A DNA stretch of 11,507 nt. It comes from a virus. Taxonomy: Duplodnaviria; Heunggongvirae; Uroviricota; Caudoviricetes. The notes beneath the pieces were generated by a model. It worked only from the letters and a program-made list of their open reading frames with translations, was not told the origin of the DNA and did not search any database. A program made the position numbers and the translations under genes. Position 1 is the stretch's first letter, and the number at the start of each line of letters is the position of its first letter. This document shows positions 1-11,507 of the stretch, piece after piece. The stretch lies in IMG/VR virus record IMGVR_UViG_2740892442_000015; one strand, given 5' to 3'.

Positions 1-468
1 TTTTGAATATGGAAATAAATCAATTATATTGCCAATTATTCCATCTTTTTGACAAAAGAGAATTATTATTAGATAAATGAAAGTAAACGTAATAAATGAG
101 ATGAAAACTTTCATAAATGCCATAAAGTTATATTTTAACGTGGGCATCTGTGTTTTTTTATGTTGTATTGACATCATCTGAAGAAACATCTCGGGTTTGG
201 ATAGTGTTGCAAATATTGTGAAACCAGCAATGAGAAAACCTAAGGTTGTCACTGCAAAGTTAAAACCAATCAAAGCCCAGTTTCTAATGTCAGATACTAA
301 ATGAGACATATCCTTCTCAATAAAAAAAGAGTTTGTTAATAAAAAAATAGATGCTGTGAGCAAAATGCAAATATGGAATGTACTAATAGTAATCCGTTTG
401 CAGAGCAAGTAAACATCCCAAAGGTTTTTCTCTTTGGTTATTTCTTTAGCATCTATTTTATTTATCAT
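1..468 (-). CDS. Partial ORF (first 156 codons; C-terminus lies beyond window start) encoding a predicted multi-pass membrane protein; last gene of the repressor-linked operon
   Basis: My own translation of the minus strand from ATG 468-466 to position 1 is open for 156 codons with no stop (MINKIDAKEITKEKNLWDVYLLCKRITISTFHICILLTASIFLLTNSFFIEKDMSHLVSDIRNWALIGFNFAVTTLGFLIAGFTIFATLSKPEMFLQMMSIQHKKTQMPTLKYNFMAFMKVFISFITFTFIYLIIILFCQKDGIIGNIIDLFPYSK...). The start overlaps the TGA stop of the upstream gene (ATGA at 465-468). It has several long hydrophobic stretches. It is absent from the supplied ORF track, probably because it has no stop inside the window. In this very AT-rich DNA an open frame of this length is unlikely by chance. 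Confidence 0.6.
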   Translation of the reverse strand, partial: MINKIDAKEITKEKNLWDVYLLCKRITISTFHICILLTASIFLLTNSFFIEKDMSHLVSDIRNWALIGFNFAVTTLGFLIAGFTIFATLSKPEMFLQMMSIQHKKTQMPTLKYNFMAFMKVFISFITFTFIYLIIILFCQKDGIIGNIIDLFPYSK

Positions 469-1493
469 CGACCAAACCTTTCATATATATTGCTAATAAT
501 TCTAATCGTCTTTTGTGAAAGAGAACGGGGTAGAGATATCTTACCTTCTTCTACAAGATTTTCATACCGCTCATAACTTTCATTTGCAGCTACTACCGTA
601 TCCTTTGATAATTCATTCATCTCACTTAACAAAACAAAGTCATCATTGCTACCTTTGATTATATCACCATTGTCATCATATCCTTTAATATTTATTCCTG
701 AATTAGCCAATCTGGTTGCTGATGTGAGTTGTTCTAAAACAGCACCATGATTCAAGCCTGAATCGGTGTTTGAAAAGCGAATAGATGTAGAAATACTTCC
801 CATTTCGTCTCCGGCACTTTCAAGTGACTCCCAAAATTCGTCGTTATCAATTTCTTCTTGATTTGTAGGGAGAAGTTTTACTGAGACATTTTGGATTTTA
901 TTAAAATTATCAATAAATTGCTCTAGGCTTTGTTTGTCAGTTAACGGCGTTATTCTTAGCTTCGGGCGTTTGATTTCGTTCCGTAAGCTTTTTTTAGTGA
1001 CTCGAGGTAAGTCAGGGTTTTCTTTGCGTTCTTCTTGTGCGGTTTCGTATAAATGAGATATGTATTTTTCATATTCTATGTTTAAGAAACACTGACTTGT
1101 TGACTGAAAGTTTTGAATTGTGGGAGCACCACTAACTTCCTTGCAAAGAATTAATCTGTGAGTGTTTAATATTAGAAGAAAGAAAGAGCTCGGGGCTGTT
1201 TCAAGCTCTTTATGATCTTCAACCAGATCAGCACCATCAAATACTTGTTCTCTGGTTAATAATGTATTCTTAATAATCCGACCTTTAATTCCGAGTACTG
1301 GGGGTGTTGCTTCTTCGTCAAGTATGACGCATTCAGTATCAATGAAAAAGAACTCTGATTTGTCAGATATTCTGCGGATGTTTGCCATCTCCAAAAAAGA
1401 GGGGAAAACAATTTCATCATAATAGTCTAGCAAAACATCATCACCAAAACGGAGAGTATAATTTCCAAATTCGAGTTTTTTTATAAAATCCAT
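465..1493 (-). CDS. Hypothetical 342-aa protein, acidic and Ser/Asn-rich, no motif I recognise (no P-loop, no tyrosine-recombinase signature); middle gene of the repressor-linked operon
   Basis: ORF from the track. A GAGG Shine-Dalgarno sits about 8 nt upstream of the ATG at 1493. It lies 15 nt downstream of the repressor gene on the same strand, and its stop overlaps the start of the next ORF. Spot counts give roughly 30 percent GC, far below the tail genes. Confidence 0.8.
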   Translation of the reverse strand: MDFIKKLEFGNYTLRFGDDVLLDYYDEIVFPSFLEMANIRRISDKSEFFFIDTECVILDEEATPPVLGIKGRIIKNTLLTREQVFDGADLVEDHKELETAPSSFFLLILNTHRLILCKEVSGAPTIQNFQSTSQCFLNIEYEKYISHLYETAQEERKENPDLPRVTKKSLRNEIKRPKLRITPLTDKQSLEQFIDNFNKIQNVSVKLLPTNQEEIDNDEFWESLESAGDEMGSISTSIRFSNTDSGLNHGAVLEQLTSATRLANSGINIKGYDDNGDIIKGSNDDFVLLSEMNELSKDTVVAANESYERYENLVEEGKISLPRSLSQKTIRIISNIYERFGR

Positions 1494-1508
1494 TACTATG
1501 CCTCAAGA

Positions 1509-2387
1509 TTAAATAGTACGGTACTGTGAGAAAATTTTGGCAACTAATTTTATATCTTCTTTTTCACAATCAAATGTTAAATCATCGTCTGTTACTCGAA
1601 GATTGCCTCCAGGTAATAGAAAAATTTGTTTTAACTTGAAATTATTTTGGTATTGAACAATCCATCTTCCGTCTTCAACATTAGCTTTATTCATGTGTGC
1701 AATATTTATGCAATGTTCGTCTTCAATTGCGAGTAAATCATTAAAATGAGGAAGCAGGGACTTATCTATCAATAAATGACCAGCATCGAAAATTTGATTG
1801 TCAATAAGTTTTACTTTAGGAATTTCTAAAGCTTCACTTTCTTCGCTTCCAAGTTTTTGCCCGCGCCCAGTTGCTAACCATAAAAGAGAAGTTCTTGTTT
1901 CCAACGAGCATCTTATGATCCAGTCAGCTGGGAATGTGTCTCGCAAGTATCTATTCGCCATTGTGCTTTTAGACACATTCAAATGGTCGGCAAGTTCTTG
2001 TCTTGTTTTAAAGCCATACGCTTCCATTAGCCTGTTTATCGCATTACGTCCACCTGAATCCAGATTTGGATGGTTCACAATTGGGTTCTCGTTGGTGGTG
2101 GCTTTGGGAACATATTGAACCAATGATGCTGGTTCCTCTAATTTAGCGGGAACTTCGGTATTCTTAGGAAATGGCACGCCTTTTCCGAATGAGAGCCACT
2201 CTATAGATGCTCCTGTTTCAATTGCACACTGAATTACCCAGTCAGCAGGAAATGCGTCACGCATCCAGCGCGTTCCCATAGTACTTGCAGATACATTGAA
2301 CTGTTCACATAGGGCTTGCCGCGTCTTGAATCCATACGCTTCAAGCATGCGCGTTATGACTGCCTGTCCTCCGTTTTTGAAATTCAT
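1509..2387 (-). CDS. Phage CI-type repressor-like protein with two tandem N-terminal HTH domains (186 CI-like family) and a C-terminal LexA/S24-like domain that appears degenerate
   Basis: Residues about 8-70 (VITRMLEAYGFKTRQALCEQFNVSASTMGTRWMRDAFPADWVIQCAIETGASIEWLSFGKG) and about 115-177 (AINRLMEAYGFKTRQELADHLNVSKSTMANRYLRDTFPADWIIRCSLETRTSLLWLATGRG) are about 60 percent identical to each other and match my memory of the phage CI repressor HTH domain. The C-terminal part (GRWIVQYQNNFKLKQIFLLPGGNLRV) resembles the LexA/CI S24 fold, but I see no G-x-S-M motif. The gene is divergent from an Apl/Cro-like gene. Confidence 0.8.
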   Translation of the reverse strand: MNFKNGGQAVITRMLEAYGFKTRQALCEQFNVSASTMGTRWMRDAFPADWVIQCAIETGASIEWLSFGKGVPFPKNTEVPAKLEEPASLVQYVPKATTNENPIVNHPNLDSGGRNAINRLMEAYGFKTRQELADHLNVSKSTMANRYLRDTFPADWIIRCSLETRTSLLWLATGRGQKLGSEESEALEIPKVKLIDNQIFDAGHLLIDKSLLPHFNDLLAIEDEHCINIAHMNKANVEDGRWIVQYQNNFKLKQIFLLPGGNLRVTDDDLTFDCEKEDIKLVAKIFSQYRTI

Positions 2388-2512
2388 CTAGTACGCCTTT
2401 GAGTAATATTGAGTTGATACTTCTCAAATGAAGAATTAATGTGTGCGAAAGTGAACTTGACGGTGTTAATCACCAGTTACCACACATCATGTTAATCGAG
2501 GAATCTTGCATC
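2388..2512. promoter_or_regulatory. Divergent intergenic switch region between the repressor gene and the Apl/Cox-like gene; likely carries both promoters and operators
   Basis: 125-nt gap between divergent start codons. TTGACG at 2457-2462 is a -35-like hexamer. The 8-mer TGTTAATC occurs twice (2464-2471 and 2490-2497). GGTGTTAATCACC at 2462-2474 has inverted 4-bp arms. A further TTAAT lies in the gaattaatgtg stretch just upstream. Confidence 0.45.
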
Positions 2513-2734
2513 ATGACTCCACATATTTCAATCACCTTAGCTGTTCCATCTGTTTCTATTGAGAAATACAGCGAACTGACTGGCTTATCTATCGACACCA
2601 TCAATGACATGCTGGCTGATGGACGTCTTATTCGCCATCGTCTCCGTAAGGATAAAAAGCGAGAAAAGGTGATGATCAATATCGCAGCAATGACTGTTGA
2701 TGCACTCGCTGAATGCAATTTGAGCATTAACTAG
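2513..2734 (+). CDS. Small HTH DNA-binding protein, Apl/Cox/Cro-like (73 aa)
   Basis: First gene transcribed away from the repressor. ATG at 2513 gives MTPHISITLAVPSVSIEKYSELTGLSIDTINDMLADGRL..., which contains an HTH-like segment. The track ORF starts at 2441 from an upstream codon, so the exact start is uncertain (another in-frame ATG lies at 2489). Confidence 0.55.
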   Translation: MTPHISITLAVPSVSIEKYSELTGLSIDTINDMLADGRLIRHRLRKDKKREKVMINIAAMTVDALAECNLSIN

Positions 2735-2748
2735 TTCCATTTTGGGTT

Positions 2749-3276
2749 ATGTCAGAGATGTCGAATATGTTTGATTACCAAGTTTCCAAACATCCACATT
2801 TTGATGAAGCCTGTCGTGCATTCGCATTGCGCCACAACCTGGTGCAACTGGCAGAACGTGCTGGCATGAATGTGCAGATTCTGCGGAACAAGCTGAACCC
2901 AGCTCAACCTCATTTATTAACCGCACCAGAAATCTGGCTGCTTACCGATCTGACTGAAGATTCAACGCTGGTAGATGGTTTTCTGGCACAGATTCATTGT
3001 CTGCCATGTGTACCGATTAATGAGGTGGCAAAAGAGAAACTGCCACATTACGTCATGAGTGCAACCGCAGAGATCGGGCGTGTTGCTGCAGGTGCGGTAT
3101 CTGGCGATGTAAAAACCAGTGCCGGTCGTCGTGATGCCATCAGCAGCATTAATTCTGTAACACGACTGATGGCGCTGGCGGCTGTTTCATTGCAGGCCCG
3201 TTTACAGGCTAACCCTGCGATGGCGAGTGCAGTTGATACTGTGACTGGCCTCGGTGCTTCATTCGGTTTGCTGTGA
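2749..3276 (+). CDS. Phage regulatory protein CII-like (phage 186 CII / CP76 family)
   Basis: 175-aa ORF. Segments such as [23 protein letters not shown] and [28 protein letters not shown] match my memory of the 186 CII family. It sits directly after the Apl-like gene, as in phage 186. An alternative start at ATG 2767 (MFDYQ...) is possible. Confidence 0.75.
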
Positions 3277-3283
3277 GGTGCTT

Positions 3284-3580
3284 ATGCTGACGAAAGAACC
3301 ATCATTTGCATCGCTGCTGGTAAAACAAAGCCCGGCAATGCACTACGGTCACGGCTGGATCATGGGAGAGGATGGTAAACGCTGGCATCCATGTCATTCA
3401 CAAGATGAATTGCTGTCTGAATTGACCACGAGAAAATGGAGAAAGTCCAAATGTATGCGGCAGAAAGTGAAGTGGTTTATCAGTTTCGTTACAGAGGGGA
3501 GAGTTATTCAGTACCTGAAGATGATTTGCTCTGTTGCTATCCGTCGTTGTCGGGCGATGGTAGCTACTTTTTCACGCTAA
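3284..3580 (+). CDS. Hypothetical small protein (98 aa from ATG 3284); coding status uncertain
   Basis: ATG at 3284 is preceded by GAGGTG and lies 8 nt after the CII-like stop. The C-terminal half overlaps the next ORF in another frame and has odd composition (rich in W, C, R, K). Confidence 0.3.
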   Translation: MLTKEPSFASLLVKQSPAMHYGHGWIMGEDGKRWHPCHSQDELLSELTTRKWRKSKCMRQKVKWFISFVTEGRVIQYLKMICSVAIRRCRAMVATFSR

Positions 3581-3675
3581 AGGATGGAACCTTTATACGT
3601 GGTGAAAAAGTACAAGAAGTGATGCGTATAAAGACATCACCTCTTGAACGTTATCGGCGAAGTATTTATCGGTAA
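3436..3675 (+). CDS. Hypothetical small protein (79 aa, or 74 aa from ATG 3451)
   Basis: ORF from the track. GGAG at 3437-3440 precedes the ATG at 3451. Amino-acid composition is balanced. It occupies the position of the small fil/dhr-type genes after cII in 186-like phages, but I do not recognise the sequence. Confidence 0.45.
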   Translation: MEKVQMYAAESEVVYQFRYRGESYSVPEDDLLCCYPSLSGDGSYFFTLKDGTFIRGEKVQEVMRIKTSPLERYRRSIYR

Positions 3676-3914
3676 CGATCTATCAGTGTCTGTATCAGAT
3701 GAGTGAATTCTTGTTGTTTAACCGAACCTAAAGGAAGTTTGTTTAATTCTTCGCGGAGGAGCTCAAAAAATGCAGATTGATTTGCTGAGTCAGTTCGAAA
3801 TAAGGAGTGGATCAGACCTGAAACAAGAATTCGTTGAACAGCAACCTCATCGCGAAGACTGGAGATCTCGTTTTCAAGTTGCTCTAAACGCTCTCTTTCA
3901 ACCGGGTTCAACAT
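3666..3914 (-). CDS. Hypothetical 82-aa protein with a coiled-coil-like N-terminus
   Basis: ORF from the track. On the minus strand an AGGA Shine-Dalgarno lies about 7 nt upstream of the ATG at 3914. It is divergent from the 113-aa ORF and its 3' end overlaps the plus-strand ORF ending at 3675 by 10 nt. Confidence 0.5.
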   Translation of the reverse strand: MLNPVERERLEQLENEISSLRDEVAVQRILVSGLIHSLFRTDSANQSAFFELLREELNKLPLGSVKQQEFTHLIQTLIDRYR

Positions 3915-3995
3915 TGATGATTCCTTCTAGCTATCAATATGTTGGTAATGGATCATATCAAAAATTTTTTAGTAGATGTGTTGTGGGATGCATAA

Positions 3996-4337
3996 ATGGC
4001 TATTGAAGGCGCTGCGGCGACTGTTCCATTAAGTCCCGGTGAACGCCTGAATGGACTTAATCACATAGCGGAATTAAGGGCGAAAGTATTTGGCCTGAAT
4101 ATTGAGTCAGAGCTTGAGCGGTTTATTAAAGATATGCGTGATCCACGGGATATCAATAATGAACAAAATAAACGGGCACTGGCTGCCATATTCTTTATGG
4201 CAAAAATTCCAGCTGAACGTCATAGCATCAGCATTAATGAGCTGACCACTGACGAAAAGCGGGAGCTGATTAAAGCAATGAATCATTTTCGTGCAGTGGT
4301 GAGCTTATTTCCCAGACGGCTAACCATGCCGAATTAA
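3996..4337 (+). CDS. Hypothetical 113-aa phage protein; lies just upstream of the tape measure region but could not be confirmed as a tail assembly chaperone
   Basis: ORF from the track with a weak Shine-Dalgarno (GGGA). I found no open -1 or +1 frame extending it toward the tape measure start, so a canonical chaperone frameshift arrangement is not supported. Confidence 0.55.
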   Translation: MAIEGAAATVPLSPGERLNGLNHIAELRAKVFGLNIESELERFIKDMRDPRDINNEQNKRALAAIFFMAKIPAERHSISINELTTDEKRELIKAMNHFRAVVSLFPRRLTMPN

Positions 4338-4404
4338 CCAACTAATGAAATTAATGGCGTAAACCCGCCGGGCATCCCTTTATCTAAATTCAGGAGAATT
4401 GATT

Positions 4405-4638
4405 ATGCGTAATATTGAAATCCTCACGACTAAAACCGGACCGGATGACGCAGGGCTTAATATTTTACTGACAGAGGCTCGTCTGGAAGAACGTCGGGCA
4501 AGGGCTGAAGCAATGGCAGCTCGCCTTGATAGCCTGGCGTGTCATATCACATCCCGCCAGCTAAACCACGTCAAAGCGGCAGAACTGCTGCGTGTAACTG
4601 CTGAAGCAATCCAGAACGAAGCGCAGGAGATCCACTAA
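4405..4638 (+). CDS. 77-aa ORF with a strong ribosome-binding site, in the same frame as the tape measure ORF and separated from it by one TAA; possibly the N-terminal part of a disrupted tape measure gene
   Basis: AGGAG at 4393-4397 lies 7 nt upstream of ATG 4405 (the track starts at TTG 4399). The stop TAA at 4636-4638 is followed two codons later by the tape measure ORF start in the same frame (4645-4405 = 240, a multiple of 3). The protein is helical and Ala/Arg/Glu-rich. Confidence 0.5.
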   Translation: MRNIEILTTKTGPDDAGLNILLTEARLEERRARAEAMAARLDSLACHITSRQLNHVKAAELLRVTAEAIQNEAQEIH

Positions 4639-4644
4639 TGGCTG

Positions 4645-7011
4645 ATGCAATGGATCTCGTACACCCGCAATATTGAACAGCTCGGTGATGCGCTGAACTA
4701 TCTGGATGATAACGCCATGTCGAAAGGGGCAGACATCATTGATGTGATGCAACGTCTGGGCGGTGTGGCTGACCGTCTGGATTATCGTAAAGCGGCGGCG
4801 CTGGGTTCCACCTTCCTGACACTGGGCGCTGCGCCAGAGGTTGCAGCCAGTGCAGCAAACGCGATGGTGCGTGAATTGTCCATTGCCACCATGCAAAGCA
4901 AGAGTTTCTTTGAAGGGATGAATCTGCTGAAACTCAATCCTGAAGTGATTGAAAAGCAGATGACGAAGGATGCGATGGGAACTATCCAGCGTGTGCTGGA
5001 GAAGGTGAACGCACTGCCGCAGGACAAGCGTCTGTCTGCCATGACCATGTTGTTTGGTAAAGAGTTTGGCGATGACGCGGCGAAACTGGCAAACAACCTG
5101 CCGGAACTACAGCGCCAGCTAAAACTGACAGCGGGCAATGATGCGCTCGGTTCCATGCAGAAAGAATCCGACATCAACAAGGACTCACTTTCTGCTCAGT
5201 GGTTGCTGGTTAAAACCGGAGCGCAGAATACCTTCAGCAGCCTGGGCGAAACGCTGCGCCAGCCGCTGATGGATATTCTGTACACGGTGAAAAGCGTTAC
5301 GGGAGCGTTGCGTCGCTGGGTGGAAGCTAACCCGGAACTGACGGGCACACTGATGAAAGTAGCCGCTATTGTGGCTGCGGTTACCGTAGGCCTCGGCACC
5401 TTGGCTGTGGCGCTGGCTGCAGTGCTGGGGCCGCTGGCAGTCATCCGTCTGGGATTCTCTGTGCTGGGCATCAGAACGTTACCTTCCGTTACGGCAGCAG
5501 TAACACGAACCAGCAGCGCGTTGTCCTGGCTGGCTGGCGCACCACTGGCACTGCTGCGACACGGGCTTGCTTCATCGGGTAACGCAGCGGGTTTACTTAC
5601 TGCGCCGTTGTCGTCTTTGCGCCGTACGGCATCACTGACGGGAAATGTCCTGAAAACTGTTGCAGGTGCGCCGGTTGCACTTTTGCGGTCTGGATTATCC
5701 GGTTTACGTGCGGTTGCTGTGATGTTTATGAATCCTCTGGCGGTACTGCGCGGTGGACTGACCGCTGCAGGTACGGTGCTGCGAGTACTGGCATCTGGTC
5801 CACTGGCGATGCTGCGCGTTGCCCTGTATGCCATATCTGGTCTGTTAGGTGCTCTGCTCAGTCCGATAGGTCTAGTGGTTACTGCACTGGCAGGCGTGGC
5901 GCTGGTTGTCTGGAAATACTGGCAACCCATCACCGCATTTCTCGGTGGCGTGGTGGAGGGATTCAAAGCGGCGGCAGGTCCCGTCAGTGCCGCATTCGAA
6001 CCACTTAAGCCTGTGTTCCAGTGGATTGGCGACAAAGTGCAGGCGCTGTGGGGCTGGTTTACTGACCTGCTGACGCCCGTTAAGTCGACCTCTGCCGAAC
6101 TGCAGAGTGCAGCGGCAATGGGGCGACGATTCGGGGAGGCCCTGGCGGAAGGGCTGAATATGGTCATGCATCCGCTGGACTCCCTGAAATCCGGCGTTTC
6201 CTGGTTGCTGGAGAAACTCGGCATTGTCAGTAAAGAGGCCGCAAAGGCAAAACTACCGGAAAGCGTGACGCGTCAGCAACCTGCGACGGTGAATGCAGAC
6301 GGCAAAGTGATGATGCCATCGGGTGGTTTTCCATCATGGGGATATGGCTTTGCGGGGATGTATGACAGCGGCGGGTATATCCCGCGCGGGCAGTTTGGCA
6401 TCGTCGGTGAAAACGGGCCGGAAATTGTTAACGGCCCGGCAAATGTGACCAGCCGGAGAAATACAGCTGCACTGGCTGCCGTTGTTGCCGGAATGATGGG
6501 CGTTGCTGCCGCGCCAGCAGAGCTTCCACCGTTGCACCCTTTGGCACTTCCCGCGAAAGGTGGAGAAGCAATTGTGAGTCGCGCAGCCACTGTGCCGCTC
6601 GTTCAACGGATTGAGGCACCGACGCAGATCATCATTCAGACGCAGCCAGGACAAAGTGCGCAGGATATTGCGCGGGAGGTGGCACGCCAGCTTGATGAAC
6701 GTGAACGCAGGCTGAAGCAAAAGCCAGGAGTAACTACAGCGATCAGGGGGGATACGACGCATGATGATGGTGCTGGGATTGTACGTGTTTATGCTGCGCA
6801 CCGTTCCGTATCAGGAACTGCAGTATCAACGCAGCTGGCGACATGCGGCAAACAGTCGGGTAAACCGACGTCCGTCCACGCAGTTTCTGGGACCGGAAAA
6901 CGACATGCTGACGCTTTCCGGTGTTCTTATGCCGGAGATAACAGGCGGCAGGCTGTCGTTGCTGGCACTGGAGCAGATGGCAGAACAGGGGAAAGCATGG
7001 CCCCTGATTGA
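4645..7011 (+). CDS. T: Phage tail tape measure protein (P2 gpT-like); probably disrupted at both ends, since the 3' 250 nt of this ORF overlap gpU
   Basis: The N-terminal region (GADIIDVMQRLGGVADRLDYRKAAALGSTFLTLGAAPEVAASAANAMVRELS) matches my memory of the tape measure core motif. A central hydrophobic region carries repeated xPLAxLRxGL motifs. It sits immediately upstream of gpU and gpD. The ATG at 4645 has no Shine-Dalgarno within normal spacing. Translation past about 6760 looks like out-of-frame junk and overlaps the recognisable gpU frame. Confidence 0.85.
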   Translation: MQWISYTRNIEQLGDALNYLDDNAMSKGADIIDVMQRLGGVADRLDYRKAAALGSTFLTLGAAPEVAASAANAMVRELSIATMQSKSFFEGMNLLKLNPEVIEKQMTKDAMGTIQRVLEKVNALPQDKRLSAMTMLFGKEFGDDAAKLANNLPELQRQLKLTAGNDALGSMQKESDINKDSLSAQWLLVKTGAQNTFSSLGETLRQPLMDILYTVKSVTGALRRWVEANPELTGTLMKVAAIVAAVTVGLGTLAVALAAVLGPLAVIRLGFSVLGIRTLPSVTAAVTRTSSALSWLAGAPLALLRHGLASSGNAAGLLTAPLSSLRRTASLTGNVLKTVAGAPVALLRSGLSGLRAVAVMFMNPLAVLRGGLTAAGTVLRVLASGPLAMLRVALYAISGLLGALLSPIGLVVTALAGVALVVWKYWQPITAFLGGVVEGFKAAAGPVSAAFEPLKPVFQWIGDKVQALWGWFTDLLTPVKSTSAELQSAAAMGRRFGEALAEGLNMVMHPLDSLKSGVSWLLEKLGIVSKEAAKAKLPESVTRQQPATVNADGKVMMPSGGFPSWGYGFAGMYDSGGYIPRGQFGIVGENGPEIVNGPANVTSRRNTAALAAVVAGMMGVAAAPAELPPLHPLALPAKGGEAIVSRAATVPLVQRIEAPTQIIIQTQPGQSAQDIAREVARQLDERERRLKQKPGVTTAIRGDTTHDDGAGIVRVYAAHRSVSGTAVSTQLATCGKQSGKPTSVHAVSGTGKRHADAFRCSYAGDNRRQAVVAGTGADGRTGESMAPD
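5520..5880 (+). repeat. Degenerate in-frame tandem repeats inside the tape measure gene
   Basis: Peptide motifs APLALLRHGL, APLSSLRRT, APVALLRSGL, NPLAVLRGGL and GPLAMLRVAL recur at intervals of about 20-25 residues. The corresponding DNA segments (ccactggcactgctgcg, ccgttgtcgtctttgcg, ccggttgcacttttgcg, cctctggcggtactgcg, ccactggcgatgctgcg) repeat at a period of about 65 nt. Confidence 0.5.
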
Positions 7012-7246
7012 AGGCAGCGGCACGATTTACGGCATGTATGTGATTGAGGGACTGAATCAGACTAAAACGGAGTTTTTCCGCGACGGTATGCCGCGCCGGA
7101 TTGAGTTCACCCTGTCGCTCAAACGGGTGGATGAATCCCTGTCCGATATGTTCGGTGATCTCAGTGCGCAACTGAATAATCTGCAGGACACGGCAACGTC
7201 TGCCTTAAGTGATATCAGTAAAACGGTGGGAGGGCTGCTGTCGTGA
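6761..7246 (+). CDS. U: Phage tail protein U (P2 gpU-like), 161 aa
   Basis: ORF from the track starting MMMVLGLYVFMLRTVPYQELQYQRSWRH..., which I recognise as P2 gpU-like. Its length is close to P2 gpU, and its stop overlaps the gpD start (GTGA at 7243-7246). Confidence 0.9.
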   Translation: MMMVLGLYVFMLRTVPYQELQYQRSWRHAANSRVNRRPSTQFLGPENDMLTLSGVLMPEITGGRLSLLALEQMAEQGKAWPLIEGSGTIYGMYVIEGLNQTKTEFFRDGMPRRIEFTLSLKRVDESLSDMFGDLSAQLNNLQDTATSALSDISKTVGGLLS

Positions 7247-8343
7247 ATTTCAGCTCAGAACTGCTTAACAAAGGCAACAAAACTCCCGCATTCAGCATCA
7301 GTATTGAGGGCAGGGATATCACCACTGTGCTGGATAACCGCCTGATGAGTTTGACGCTGACGGATAACCGGGGCTTTGAAGCGGACCAGCTTGATCTGGA
7401 GCTGGATGACGCTGACGGAAAAATCGTGCTGCCGCGCCGTGGTGCGGTCATTACGCTGGCGCTGGGCTGGAAGGGGCAGCCGCTTTTCCCGAAAGGGGCA
7501 TTCACAGTGGACGAGATTGAACACACTGGCGCACCGGACCGCCTGACTATCCGGGCGCGAAGTGCTGATTTTCGGGAAACGCTGAATACCCGCCGTGAAA
7601 AATCGTGGCATAAGACCACCGTCGGGGAAGTGGTGAAGGAAATAGCCGCGCGGCACAAGCTGAAGATGGCACTGGGTAAAGACCTGTCGGATAAGCCCGT
7701 GGAGCATATAGACCAGACTAATGAGAGTGACGGCAGTTTTCTGATGCGGCTGGCGCGACAGTACGGTGCCATCGCGTCGGTGAAAAATGGCAATCTGTTA
7801 TTCATCAGGCAGGGGCAGGGCAAAAGCGCCACTGGTAAACCTCTGCCAGTGATCACTATCACACGCAAGGACGGCGACAGTCACCGATTTACCCTGGCAG
7901 ATCGCGGAGCCTACACGGGCGTAATTGCCAGCTGGTTGCATACCCGCGAACCTGCGAAGAAAGAAAGCACCACGGTGAAGCGTAAGCGCAGAACTAAGAA
8001 GCAGAAGAAAGAGCCGGAAGCGAAGCAGGGCGATTACCTGGTGGGTACGGATGAAAACGTGCTGGTACTTAATCGCACTTATGCCAACCGGAGCAACGCC
8101 GAACGAGCGGCGAAAATGCAGTGGGAACGCCTGCAACGCGGCGTTGCGTCATTCTCGCTACAACTGGCGGAAGGGCGGGCAGATCTCTACACGGAAATGC
8201 CAGTGAAAGTCAGTGGCTTTAAACAGCCGATAGATGATGCGGAATGGACTATTACCACCCTGACGCATACTGTCAGCCCGGATAACGGTTTTACGACCAG
8301 TCTGGAGCTTGAAGTGAAGATTGATGATTTCGAAATGGAATGA
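7243..8343 (+). CDS. D: Phage tail protein D (P2 gpD-like, late control D family), 366 aa
   Basis: ORF from the track with a GTG start overlapping the gpU stop. It holds the gpD position between U and ogr, as in P2, and the sequence matches my memory of the family. Confidence 0.9.
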   Translation: MNFSSELLNKGNKTPAFSISIEGRDITTVLDNRLMSLTLTDNRGFEADQLDLELDDADGKIVLPRRGAVITLALGWKGQPLFPKGAFTVDEIEHTGAPDRLTIRARSADFRETLNTRREKSWHKTTVGEVVKEIAARHKLKMALGKDLSDKPVEHIDQTNESDGSFLMRLARQYGAIASVKNGNLLFIRQGQGKSATGKPLPVITITRKDGDSHRFTLADRGAYTGVIASWLHTREPAKKESTTVKRKRRTKKQKKEPEAKQGDYLVGTDENVLVLNRTYANRSNAERAAKMQWERLQRGVASFSLQLAEGRADLYTEMPVKVSGFKQPIDDAEWTITTLTHTVSPDNGFTTSLELEVKIDDFEME

Positions 8344-8433
8344 TTCTTCGCAATGGAGAACTTTTAAGTTTTCAAAATGGAATAATGCGGTATCATTATT
8401 GTGAATTTAGCAAAAATGGGGAGAACTCGAAAA

Positions 8434-8652
8434 ATGATGATTTGCCCACTGTGTGGAAGTGCCGCCCATACTCGCAGCAGTTTTCAGGTATCTTCATTGA
8501 CCAAAGAGCGTTACAACCAGTGCCAGAACATTAACTGCAGCCATACTTTTGTTACTCATGAAACTTTTGTTCGTTCGATTGCAACGCCAAAAGAGTCAAA
8601 TCCGGTTCAGCCGCATCCAATGAAATCAGGACAGGTGGCGCTCTCTCTTTGA
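8434..8652 (+). CDS. ogr: Ogr-type zinc-finger late transcription activator (P2 Ogr / 186 B family), 72 aa
   Basis: MMICPLCGSAAHTRSS...NQCQNINCSHTF carries the C-x2-C...C-x4-C zinc-finger pattern and resembles P2 Ogr in length and sequence. It is the last phage gene before host DNA, as in integrated P2. The track ORF starts upstream at 8401 from an alternative start codon. Confidence 0.85.
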   Translation: MMICPLCGSAAHTRSSFQVSSLTKERYNQCQNINCSHTFVTHETFVRSIATPKESNPVQPHPMKSGQVALSL

Positions 8653-8732
8653 CGCTGCCGCCATTTTGTCGCCATCGTTAAAAAACAGTGCTTCTAACAT
8701 CATGATTTTAAAGAGCATAAATTTCAGGCAAC

Positions 8733-8775
8733 AAAAAACCCATCAACCTTGAACCGAAATGGCGGGGTTGATGGG
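8733..8775 (-). terminator. Rho-independent terminator candidate for minus-strand transcription, probably the ybjL terminator
   Basis: Perfect 10-bp inverted repeat CCCATCAACC (8739-8748) and GGTTGATGGG (8766-8775). On the minus strand the stem is followed directly by TTTTTT (complement of the A run at 8733-8738). The loop is long (17 nt), but its outer bases can partly pair. Confidence 0.5.
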
Positions 8776-8887
8776 CTCCACAAAATGGGGACATCAAAGA
8801 AAAGCAGTGGCACTAATTAAGACTGATGCCCTGCGGAAAAGTTCTGCGGTTGTGCAAAAAAATTTCATTTTCAGGGCAACTTCAGTT

Positions 8888-10573
8888 TTATCCTAATCCT
8901 GGCCATACCATGACGATGATTGTCCCTGCCAGCGTCAGCAGGACGTTGGCGATTGCATAGGTGCCCGCATAGCCCAGCGCCGGGATGTTACTGCGAGCTG
9001 TATCACTGATGATCTCCATTGCCGGCGCGCAGGTACGTGCGCCCATCATTGCGCCGAACAACAGCGCGCGGTTCATTCGCAATACATAAGCACCGAACAA
9101 GAAACAGATAACCACGGGCACCAGACTGACAATCAATCCGGCAATCAACATCTGACCGCCAATCGCGCCCAGGCCGTTATTAATACCGCTACCGGCGCTC
9201 AGACCAACGCCTGCCATAAACACCATCAAGCCGAACTCTTTCACCATGCTTAATGCACCCTGCGGAATGTAACCGAAGGTCGGGTGGTTAGCACGCATAA
9301 AGCCCAGCATAATTCCGGCGAATAACAACCCGGCAGCGTTCCCCATGCCGAAACTGAATGTGCTGAACTGGAAGGTGATCATCCCGATCATCAGCCCAAT
9401 AACAAAGAAGGCGCAGAATGCCAGCAGGTCAGTGACCTGGCTGTGAATCGAGATAAAGCCGATGCGATCGGCGATGGTTTTTACGCGGCGGGCATCGCCG
9501 CTGACTTGTAAAACGTCACCTTTGTTAAGCACGACGTTGTCATCTATCGGCATCTCAATCTGGCTACGAATGACGCGGTTAAGGAAGCAACCGTGATCGG
9601 TCAACTTCAGTTGTGCGAGACGTTTACCTACAGCGTTATGGTTTTTAACGACCACTTCTTCAGTGACGATACGCATGTCGAGAAGGTCACGATCGAAAAC
9701 TTCTTTACCGTTACGGAAGCTGGGATCGAGTCGGGCATGGGCGTCGGGATAGCCTACCAACGCTATTTCATCGCCCATTTGTAGCACGGCATCACCGTCT
9801 GGATTTGCCAGAATCCCGTTACGTCGAATACGTTCAATGTAGCAGCCGGTTTGTCGATAAATACCCAGTTCACGCAGATTTTTGCCGTCGGTCCAGGCCA
9901 CCAGTTCCGGGCCGACGCGATAGGCGCGGATCACCGGTAAATAAACCTTACGGTTGGCATCAGTGTCCAGGCCACGTTCGCGGGCGATTTGCTGGGCGCT
10001 GGTCTGTAAGTCCTGATGCTGCAATTTCGGCAAGTAACGCGCACCAACAATCAAACTCACCAGACCGATTAAATAGGTTAAGGCATACCCGAGGCTCAGA
10101 TTATCCAGTGCCAGTGAGAGCTGCCTGCTTTCCATGCCGGAATGACGCAGTGTATCGCCAGCACCGACCAGAACCGGTGTCGACGTCATAGAGCCTGCTA
10201 ACATACCGGCCGTCAGGCCAATATCCCAGCCAAACAGCTTACCTAACCCTAAGGCGATCACCAGCGCACTGCCAACCATCACCAGTGCTAACATTAGGTA
10301 ATTTTTCCCATCGCGAAAAAAAATGGAAAAAAAGTTCGGTCCGGCTTCGACCCCGACGCAGAAAATAAACAGCATAAAGCCAAGATTAAGCGCATCGGTG
10401 TTAATGCTGAAATGTTGTTGGCCTAATAACAGCGATACGACTAAAACGCCAATGGAATTACCCAGTTGGATCGAACCAAGTCGTAACTTTCCGAGACATA
10501 GCCCAAGCGCGAGGACCACAAATAATAACAGAATGTAATTCCCATTTAACAATTCGGCGACGTTTATATTCAC
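8888..10573 (-). CDS. ybjL: Putative transport protein YbjL (AAE-family membrane transporter with internal RCK/TrkA-C-like domains), 561 aa
   Basis: ORF from the track. The length and sequence ([25 protein letters not shown]...) match my memory of E. coli YbjL. Hydrophobic N- and C-terminal blocks flank a soluble central region. It is adjacent to ybjM and grxA, as in the E. coli chromosome. Confidence 0.93.
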
Positions 10574-10842
10574 GGAGGCTAACTTCTTGTTTACTAGTAA
10601 GCTGTTGAAAGAAATGGTAATTTACGATAATGTTTTTTACCAGAATTCAGGGCGCAGATTCATTCAGCGCACCTAAACGATAGTAAAGTAACAATATATT
10701 TTACTAGTGTAATCACATTAGGTATCAACGGCTATATGAATTGCGTTGGCCTATATTAGCATGGAATGCGAAGCGGCTTTATCTTACTGAACGCCACACT
10801 GGCGAAAAATGTGTTCGATAGACGCAGTGTCAGGAGGAACGA
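10574..10842. promoter_or_regulatory. Divergent ybjL / ybjM promoter region
   Basis: 269-nt AT-rich gap between divergent start codons. The motif TACTAGT occurs twice (10595-10601 and 10702-10708). AGGAGG lies about 8 nt upstream of the ybjM GTG start. Confidence 0.4.
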
Positions 10843-11220
10843 GTGAAACATAAACAACGTTGGGCGGGGGCAATCTGCTGTTTTGTCCTCTTCATTGTGG
10901 TGTGCCTTTTTCTGGCGACGCACATGAAAGGCGCTTTTCGGGCTGCCGGGCATCCTGAAATCGGCTTGCTATTTTTCATTCTTCCTGGAGCAGTCGCCAG
11001 CTTCTTTTCACAGCGTAGAGAAGTCCTGAAACCTCTGTTTGGCGCAATGCTGGCGGCACCCTGTTCGATGCTCATTATGCGGCTGTTTTTTTCACCGACG
11101 CGCTCATTCTGGCAAGAGCTGGCATGGTTACTAAGCGCGGTGTTCTGGTGTGCGCTGGGGGCACTGTGTTTCTTATTTATCAGTAGTTTGTTTAAACCAC
11201 AGCACAGAAAAAATCAGTAA
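10843..11220 (+). CDS. ybjM: Inner membrane protein YbjM, 125 aa
   Basis: ORF from the track with a GTG start and a strong upstream AGGAGG. The protein is hydrophobic. Its position between ybjL and grxA matches the E. coli gene order. Confidence 0.85.
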   Translation: MKHKQRWAGAICCFVLFIVVCLFLATHMKGAFRAAGHPEIGLLFFILPGAVASFFSQRREVLKPLFGAMLAAPCSMLIMRLFFSPTRSFWQELAWLLSAVFWCALGALCFLFISSLFKPQHRKNQ

Positions 11221-11240
11221 AGCCCTCAACGCGAGGGCTT
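11220..11240 (-). terminator. GC-rich hairpin between convergent ybjM and grxA; likely the grxA terminator
   Basis: AAGCCCTC aacgc GAGGGCTT forms an 8-bp stem with a 5-nt loop. On the minus strand it is followed within about 7 nt by TTTTTT. On the plus strand no U-run follows, so it is a poorer terminator for ybjM. Confidence 0.4.
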
Positions 11241-11249
11241 GTCAGACGA

Positions 11250-11507
11250 TCAGGCGTCCAGATTTTCTTTCACCCATGCAGCAAAATCGGTATAGCCGCC
11301 GATATGTTGCTGATCGACAAAAATCTGCGGCACGGTTTCTACGGGTTTACCTGCCTTTTGTTGTAGATCTTCTTTAGTGATCCCTTCCGCACGAATATCT
11401 ACATACTGATACTGAAAATCATCGCGTTCATTGCTCAATTTCTCAGCCAGATCTTTTGCACGCACACAGTAAGGGCAACCCGAACGACCAAAAATAACGG
11501 TTTGCAT
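11250..11507 (-). CDS. grxA: Glutaredoxin 1 (complete; start codon is at the last bases of the window)
   Basis: 85-aa ORF MQTVIFGRSGCPYCVRAKDLAEKL... with the CPYC active site. It matches my memory of E. coli GrxA in length and sequence. Confidence 0.95.
   Translation of the reverse strand: MQTVIFGRSGCPYCVRAKDLAEKLSNERDDFQYQYVDIRAEGITKEDLQQKAGKPVETVPQIFVDQQHIGGYTDFAAWVKENLDA

Follow-up and report, generated by a model that had tools for sequence, protein, structure and literature searches.

The AT-rich cI-int slot of a decayed 186/P2-like prophage of Escherichia coli probably holds a RexAB-type two-gene module

RexAB of phage lambda was the first abortive-infection system discovered. Its RexA protein is a DNA-binding dimer with an RdgC-like fold (PMC11077077), and five Rex-like systems have been described by the count of a 2026 paper. 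In RexABpp of Pseudomonas putida prophage P1 (PP_5643/PP_5644), overexpression of RexA leads to a RexB-dependent growth arrest and membrane permeabilization (PMC12894663). In Sucellos (SclA/SclB), encoded by cassette 68 of the Vibrio cholerae superintegron, both genes are required and act by abortive infection; the system is RexAB-like by structure, has no Pfam domain match, and has homologues mostly in prophages, often those of Salmonella (bioRxiv 10.1101/2024.07.02.601686). The actinophages Sbash (gp30/gp31), CarolAnn (gp44/gp43), and Butters (gp30/gp31) each encode a cytoplasmic protein with a weak DUF4747/RexA signal and a partner with four transmembrane segments; these Rex-like pairs are expressed in lysogens and provide phage-specific defense, with the CarolAnn pair co-expressed with the repressor and the RexA-like protein of Butters acting as an effector that is sequestered by the membrane protein (PMC7542560, PMC12894663). 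Defense genes are also known to cluster at hotspots in P2-like phages: in E. coli, the main hotspots published for P2 lie at gpA-portal and in the tail region (Rousset et al. 2022; PMC13586616), 8% of P2 defense systems lie in an int-primase hotspot (PMC13586616), and a cI-int defense hotspot has been described in K139-like P2 relatives, which are Vibrio phages (PMC9122126). Here we analyzed an 11,507-nt stretch of DNA (IMG/VR record IMGVR_UViG_2740892442_000015; hereafter the window), which is E. coli chromosome almost identical to that of strain TUM10008 and carries a decayed 186/P2-like prophage between rcdA and ybjL. Between the repressor gene (cI) and the integrase gene (int) of this prophage lies an AT-rich block with two cargo genes, encoding a 342-aa soluble protein and a 226-aa membrane partner, which probably form a RexAB-type module that would be expressed in lysogens and act by abortive infection.

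The layout of the two cargo genes (Table 1) suggests that they are co-transcribed with cI in lysogens, as rexAB is in lambda. Co-transcription is favored because (i) the cargo genes and cI are on the same strand; (ii) the gap after cI is only 15 nt and carries a ribosome-binding site, and the two cargo genes overlap by 4 nt; and (iii) no terminator-like site occurs before the one that follows int. On the minus strand, such sites were found neither in the spacer between cI and the cargo nor between the cargo and int, and the lone hairpin of the stretch on this strand, a weak one, is located at window 418-437, inside the coding sequence of the membrane gene. A promoter scan revealed no convincing promoter for the cargo itself. 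Based on synteny with pR/pL of phage 186, the lysogenic promoter for cI and the cargo should lie in the divergent region between cI and cox/apl or just within cox/apl; a consensus promoter scan of the divergent region found no strong site. The full gene of the membrane partner runs off the left end of the window and corresponds to window -212..468 (positions 13788-14468 of L001, the matching E. coli locus). By analogy with lambda RexAB, RexABpp, Sucellos, and the Sbash and CarolAnn systems, a pair of this type would be transcribed with cI in the lysogen, and on infection by another phage the RexA-like protein would sense a phage cue and activate the membrane partner, which in turn would depolarize or permeabilize the inner membrane, stop growth, and abort the infection. 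In TUM10008, an A at window 920 (G in the window) introduces a premature stop, leaving two open reading frames (ORFs) of 191 aa and 112 aa in place of the 342-aa gene, annotated by the Prokaryotic Genome Annotation Pipeline (PGAP) as two hypothetical proteins; the window copy is intact.

Structural modeling predicted that the 342-aa protein has the two-domain fold of RexA and RdgC. The model was generated by AlphaFold2 (AF2) on a 55-sequence alignment, with a predicted local distance difference test (pLDDT) score of 86.5 and a predicted template modeling (pTM) score of 0.84. When this model was compared with the PDB by Foldseek, lambda RexA (8TWQ chains B and A) provided the sole significant matches (E 1.2e-6 and 9.6e-6, respectively, probability 1.00), and the next match was at E 0.05. 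RexA was the top PDB match of the protein by two methods, and the structural relatives of the model were the set given in the RexA structure paper (PMC11077077). The membrane partner was modeled by AF2 as an all-helical protein (pLDDT 85.7) and has four hydrophobic segments (residues ~25-51, 64-90, 115-149, and 160-196); a Foldseek search of BFVD with this model found nothing (best E 0.94).

Several caveats apply to the likeness of the module to RexAB. The Foldseek TM-scores to RexA were low (0.32-0.38); thus, the match is to be read at the level of domains. The 342-aa protein was not matched by the RexA profile of Pfam (PF15969; E up to 10) or PADLOC (E up to 1), under which lambda RexA itself scored E 1e-97 and 9e-110 as a control; the RexA profile of Pfam and the RexA/RexB profiles of PADLOC match only the lambda proteins. 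Comparison of the family profiles with lambda RexA by hhalign was not significant (probability 1-2%), with the same short stretch aligned twice at this probability (GNS-x-V-x-L-x-G-x-D-x-x-GD of the family to RexA residues 212-230). The DUF4747 signal found in the family was below the gathering threshold of the Pfam model (PF15931, 27 bits), the best member reaching 21.5 bits (E 1.7e-4) and one of 104 representatives matching at E 0.0085. Likewise, the membrane partner had no match to PADLOC RexB, and its hhalign probability to RexB was 0.5%. The window 342-aa protein itself did not match DUF4747, and precomputed PF15931.11 matches are listed for about 20 family members.

Both cargo proteins (WP_000345586.1 and WP_000608638.1) were found to belong to large families, and neither had a match in Pfam, PHROGs, PADLOC, or NCBIfam; when PDB sequences were searched by profile, only noise was returned (E 2). 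A word-indexed search for the 342-aa protein detected 167 clusters at 90% identity, with 45-80% identity and many invariant residues, and an exhaustive HMMER search detected 696 clusters at 50% identity, nearly all of 320-350 aa. The best 150 matches of the exhaustive representative search ended at E 5.5e-60 and included no bridge to RexA. For the 226-aa protein, 280 clusters make up a parallel family within these taxa. Among 42 loci with downstream DNA, drawn from Gamma-, Beta-, and Alphaproteobacteria and from IMG/VR viral contigs, the membrane gene was located directly downstream of the soluble gene in 41, and the order cI, soluble gene, membrane gene, and int was kept in all 16 loci at ≥59% identity. 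Members of the family abound in Salmonella, E. coli, and Cronobacter, and others are present in Vibrio and a nitrifier. The settings were diverse, with the module adjoining Druantia genes in Vibrio harveyi and lambdoid early genes (CI/Cro-type repressors and replication protein P) in Plesiomonas and, in Pseudomonas, lying near a HigB toxin gene as well as in chromosomal islets. In V. vulnificus and V. parahaemolyticus (L036-L039), the module comes after a series of small genes, most of them unannotated and one encoding a PM2-type coat protein (Pfam P2_N/P2_C), and is followed by a DUF3653 gene, with Zot-type genes of the kind found in filamentous phages next in one strain; this context is possibly that of a corticovirus-like prophage.

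The tight coupling of two small genes on mobile elements, one of them encoding a membrane protein, would also fit another kind of membrane-acting module, either a toxin-antitoxin or addiction system that stabilizes the prophage or a superinfection-exclusion protein that blocks DNA entry, in which case the soluble protein would be only a regulator of the membrane protein. The HigB gene near the module in Pseudomonas and the Butters precedent, where it is the RexA-like effector that the membrane protein sequesters (PMC7542560, PMC12894663), are in line with this alternative. We consider it quite improbable, as (i) no match to any toxin-antitoxin family of PADLOC or Pfam was detected; (ii) the best structural match, and a specific one, is RexA; and (iii) a size of 342 aa and a DNA-binding fold are atypical of antitoxins.

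The position of the RexAB-type module was compared among related prophages, and on this comparison the AT-rich block reads as a variable immunity-plus-cargo slot between the repressor and integrase genes. The flanks of the slot (int and ~60 bp on the left; cox and cII on the right) are 90-98% identical among prophages of this integrase group, and seven different slot contents were identified within the group, six of them at the E. coli rcdA site and the seventh in Klebsiella phage 4LV2017. Instead of the module found in the window, the slot holds (i) the PADLOC candidate system HEC-01, consisting of an AAA ATPase and a DUF4276 protein, in AMSHJX01 (PADLOC E 6e-208 and 9e-76); (ii) a 558-aa DUF4041 protein in 2014C-3097; (iii) four genes, one with an ASCH domain, in SCU-105; (iv) a 314-aa hypothetical gene in AR434; (v) a 63-aa gene in P276M; and (vi) an allele of the same two-gene module, at 41% and 37% identity, in phage 4LV2017, the Int and CII of which are 98% and 100% identical, respectively. 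In phage 186, which has a different integrase and attachment site, the slot is empty and cI abuts int. The left junction of the slot is fixed ~60 bp upstream of int, and the right junction is located either within cI, at the boundary of the helix-turn-helix (HTH) and C-terminal domain (CTD) regions (window 1865), or at the start of cox (window 2499), where homology to the sibling prophages resumes. A repeat search of the region detected no flanking direct or inverted repeats able to mediate cassette exchange.

These findings agree with the proposal of an earlier note, made from the window alone, that the block is cargo of foreign origin: its contents vary among siblings of 90-98% identity at the same attachment site, the module also occurs in unrelated contexts, and the related prophages that lack the block carry other contents in the same slot (e.g., HEC-01 in AMSHJX01). 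The description as cargo applies to most of the block but not to about one sixth of it (~357 of 2105 bp), which encodes the CTD of CI. Three side observations were made at this slot. A near-consensus TTGACA-N16-TATAAA site is present just upstream of int in the conserved left flank (L001 13723-13750; ~250-277 bp left of the window), and may supply int with a promoter of its own regardless of the cargo upstream. In the RefSeq record of Klebsiella phage 4LV2017 (NC_047818), the gene for the 201-aa membrane partner (L030 1244-1849) is unannotated, and int and a 349-aa hypothetical gene are shown 770 bp apart with nothing between them. The intact prophage of strain 20A24, which carries the same module, also has its classical gpA-portal hotspot filled by retron St85, with a DUF6216 gene in the tail region (L040 11145-13193 and 21518-22324), giving up to three filled cargo slots in one phage.

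The right-hand part of the block was further examined for its relationship to cI. The CI protein of the window (1509-2387, minus strand) is 292 aa in length, with HTH domains at residues ~9-70 and 116-177 followed by one Phage_CI_C domain. Compared with the CI of AMSHJX01, the HTH part was 81-84% identical in amino acid sequence and the CTD only 27%, with homology to this prophage ending at window 1865. The GC content of the cI CTD was 30-36% in all nine relatives of this group examined, irrespective of their cargo, vs 44% in phage 186. CIs with tandem HTH domains were also observed in AMSHJX01 (297 aa), AR434 (292 aa), SCU-105 (299 aa), and Klebsiella phage 4LV2017 (313 aa); phage 186 (192 aa) and other siblings (188-198 aa) have a CI with a single HTH domain.

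The close association with cI raises the alternative that the RexA-like protein mainly tunes the lysis-lysogeny switch of its own prophage, with the membrane partner antagonizing it and with exclusion of other phages either incidental or lacking. Lambda provides a precedent, as RexA binds CI and DNA, interacts with both CI and Cro, and stabilizes the lytic configuration, and RexB antagonizes RexA (PMC11077077). In addition, the module abuts cI, and in one sibling comparison it was found to be exchanged jointly with the cI CTD (junction at window 1865). Counter to this role, family members of ~50% identity are located far from any 186-type repressor (next to Druantia, in the Pseudomonas chromosomal islets, or by the PM2-type capsid genes of Vibrio), and there an accessory of the switch would be useless. 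Moreover, the identity of the cI CTD is only loosely tied to that of the module, at 43, 34, and 28% where the modules are 80, 58, and 41% identical. A role mainly in the switch therefore seems unlikely, and it would be compatible with abortive infection by a RexAB-type pair. A broader proposal, which we regard as doubtful, is that the module represents a RexAB-type family of very large size (~700 clusters at 50% identity) that was missed by Pfam, PHROGs, PADLOC, and NCBIfam, is distinct from the described Rex-like systems, and in 186-like coliphages has been exchanged at least once with the cI oligomerization domain as a single AT-rich unit. If true, the partnership of a CI-type repressor with a RexA-fold protein would be conserved across lambdoid, P2/186-like, and actinobacterial temperate phages, and Rex, instead of being an oddity of lambda, would be an ancestral accessory of the immunity switch.

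The base composition of the block was determined in relation to its surroundings. A sharp compositional break had been proposed in the earlier note from three spot counts, which were exact (14, 18, and 39 G+C at window 1-60, 601-660, and 5401-5460, respectively), and the break is real and far beyond chance. Measured across the matching 30-kb locus of E. coli, the block (2151 bp) had a GC fraction of 0.323, more than 7 standard deviations (SD) below the remaining 480 segments of the same size (mean 0.505 ± 0.025, minimum 0.442); thus, composition is not uniform when sequence outside the window is included. Sliding-window analysis revealed 29-38% GC from position 1 to ~1870, followed by 40-46% across the early genes and 50-61% across the tail genes. 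By segment, positions 1-1870 had a GC fraction of 0.333 and positions 1871-2440 one of 0.433; the early genes (2441-4640) reached 0.452, the tail genes (4645-8343) 0.559, and the host genes (8888-11507) 0.495. Codon usage followed the same trend, with GC at third codon positions (GC3) of 0.28-0.30 in the two cargo genes compared with 0.55 in the host genes and 0.58-0.64 in the tail genes. An explanation of the low GC solely by the amino acid usage of a membrane protein was rejected because GC3 was as low as GC1 and GC2, and the GC3 of the soluble protein gene was also 0.28. The limits of the block differed from the 1-2440 originally assigned. A steep edge was found at ~1865-1870, within cI where the second HTH domain ends, and on the left the block continues for ~240 bp outside the window, as far as the integrase promoter region. 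The description of the left 2.4 kb as AT-rich relative to the tail and host genes is therefore accurate for 1 to ~1870, but the remainder up to 2440 has an ordinary GC content of 43%. An Rfam scan of window 1-2800 detected no RNA family.

The age of the block was addressed by examining the module at other loci. In all 27 loci examined, the GC content of the module was below that of its flanks, by 1-28 points, including in hosts of 62-67% GC (e.g., 41% for the module in a Denitromonas of 67% GC). Low GC is thus a standing property of the family and cannot be used as a clock. Furthermore, the stretch from int through the membrane and soluble genes to the cI CTD was collinear in a Kosakonia prophage (73% nucleotide identity) and a Serratia prophage (65%), with the protein identities falling together (90% and 73% for Int, 80% and 58% for the soluble protein, and 76% and 50% for the membrane partner, respectively). 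This collinearity indicates that the int-to-cI CTD stretch is old cargo of the phage lineage. Recent horizontal acquisition, which the compositional break had been taken to indicate, is not supported by these findings; the low GC is instead a persistent signature of a mobile, exchangeable module and of the cI CTDs of this phage group, and no sign of recent arrival.

The same results bear on a further alternative, namely that the block is recently acquired xenogeneic DNA held transcriptionally silent by H-NS and devoid of a current function. A GC content of 28-35% across ~2.1 kb falls in the range generally known to be preferred by H-NS, the block is AT-rich relative to its host (0.32 vs 0.51), and the module is rare in E. 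coli, being carried by 13 of 5426 complete genomes compared with 1135 for its integrase. We nonetheless find this alternative highly improbable. Both proteins are conserved at full length over hundreds of clusters, with 45-80% identity and dozens of invariant residues, which is a sign of purifying selection. The block also includes the essential CTD of CI and lies inside the putative cI-int transcription unit, so that blanket silencing would affect the repressor too. Finally, the low GC in every host and the collinearity in Kosakonia and Serratia show that the DNA is not a recent arrival. A sharp drop in GC beside a prophage repressor gene, as observed here, marks a slot for defense cargo and shows neither recent acquisition nor silencing.

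The remainder of the window is consistent with a 186/P2-like gene order that has been shortened by a deletion. On the minus strand run int (just left of the window), the 226-aa gene, the 342-aa gene, and cI; rightward from cI are cox/apl, cII, fil, an 82-aa minus-strand ORF, a DUF5347 gene, and a DUF2732 gene, followed by a 5′-truncated tape-measure gene, gpU, gpD, ogr, and ybjL. A blastn comparison with the prophage of strain 20A24, an intact 35-kb sibling, placed window 3994-4660 at L040 5423-6089 and window 4662-11507 at L040 31817-38663. The window has thus lost 25.7 kb relative to this sibling, including the replication, head, and lysis genes and most of the tail genes. Among the 5426 complete E. 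coli genomes, this deleted form was present only in TUM10008. The cargo adjoins GC-rich tail genes because of this internal deletion, a step of prophage decay; the adjacency that had been pointed out does exist, but it is a product of the deletion and not the original layout, as the tail genes are ~27 kb distant in intact relatives. Two smaller differences were observed. Window 3416-3993 is a 578-bp segment missing from the intact 20A24 sibling prophage; it carries a longer C-terminus of fil and the 82-aa minus-strand ORF (3666-3914; 41% GC, PHROG 26925, of unknown function) and looks like a second small moron. At window ~6718, one nucleotide present in TUM10008 and 20A24 is missing, which puts the tape-measure gene, truncated as it already is, out of frame, such that its ORF ends at 7011 rather than 6765 and overlaps gpU; this could represent further decay or a sequencing error.

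Table 1. Coordinates of the cargo module, the repressor gene, and neighboring features in the window
Feature	Position	Strand	Basis or remark
226-aa membrane partner gene, rexB-like in role; first 156 codons in window, GC 0.28	1..468	-	ORF and translation
342-aa soluble protein gene (rexA-like), predicted RexA-type fold; GC 0.35	465..1493	-	4-nt overlap with start of membrane gene
Spacer between cI and rexA-like gene, 15 nt	1494..1508	-	GAGG ribosome-binding site 7 nt ahead of ATG
cI 3′ part: linker and Phage_CI_C oligomerization domain (residues ~175-292); right-hand part of block, 0.30 GC	1509..1865	-	Pfam PF16452, residues 188-285
cI 5′ part: two tandem Phage_CI_repr HTH domains; outside block, 0.45 GC	1866..2387	-	Pfam PF07022, two stretches, E 4e-59
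cI/cox-apl divergent control region	2388..2512		Gene order same as in phage 186
cox/apl-type excisionase-repressor gene, first gene of conserved right flank of slot	2513..2734	+	PHROG 575, E 1.6e-28
Deletion junction, end of DUF2732 gene fused to middle of tape-measure gene	4660..4662		blastn vs intact 20A24 prophage

Overall, a module of this kind is already known, both as RexAB-type abortive infection and as the content of a P2-family defense hotspot, and what is new is a large family unannotated in the four libraries searched, which is common in marine Gammaproteobacteria as well as in E. coli, Salmonella, and Cronobacter. As at the P2 hotspots, a locus between conserved phage genes is variable and holds differing anti-phage systems in siblings, here HEC-01 in one sibling; unlike those hotspots, the exchanged unit takes in part or all of cI. 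RexABpp is probably a separate sequence family, set apart by its published description, in which BLAST relatives were reported only in pseudomonads and two genes separate the pair from the repressor (PMC12894663). Sucellos is similar in that its resemblance to RexAB is by structure only, and the present family is likewise abundant in Salmonella; the two may be one family on comparison with the published description, and no V. cholerae protein was detected among the best 120 of 348 matches of a Vibrio-centered profile search or among the names of the cluster members. The actinophage systems share the combination of a cytoplasmic protein with a four-segment membrane partner, yet they come from phages of Actinobacteria, are likened here by description, and in Butters have the roles of the two proteins reversed. 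With lambda RexAB, neither protein shares detectable sequence similarity, the present proteins are larger (342 vs 279 aa and 226 vs 144 aa), and the carrier is a 186/P2-like myovirus with a 186-type CI rather than a lambdoid phage, with the module placed between cI and int. This 186-like setting offers a second tractable coliphage, with a well-understood switch, in which to ask what RexA-type proteins sense and whether they contact the repressor. As in lambda, a soluble protein with a predicted RexA/RdgC-type fold is followed by a four-segment membrane protein, directly downstream of cI and on the same strand, in a region richer in AT than the remainder of the phage (40% GC for rexA, 42.5% for rexB, and 45% for cI of lambda).

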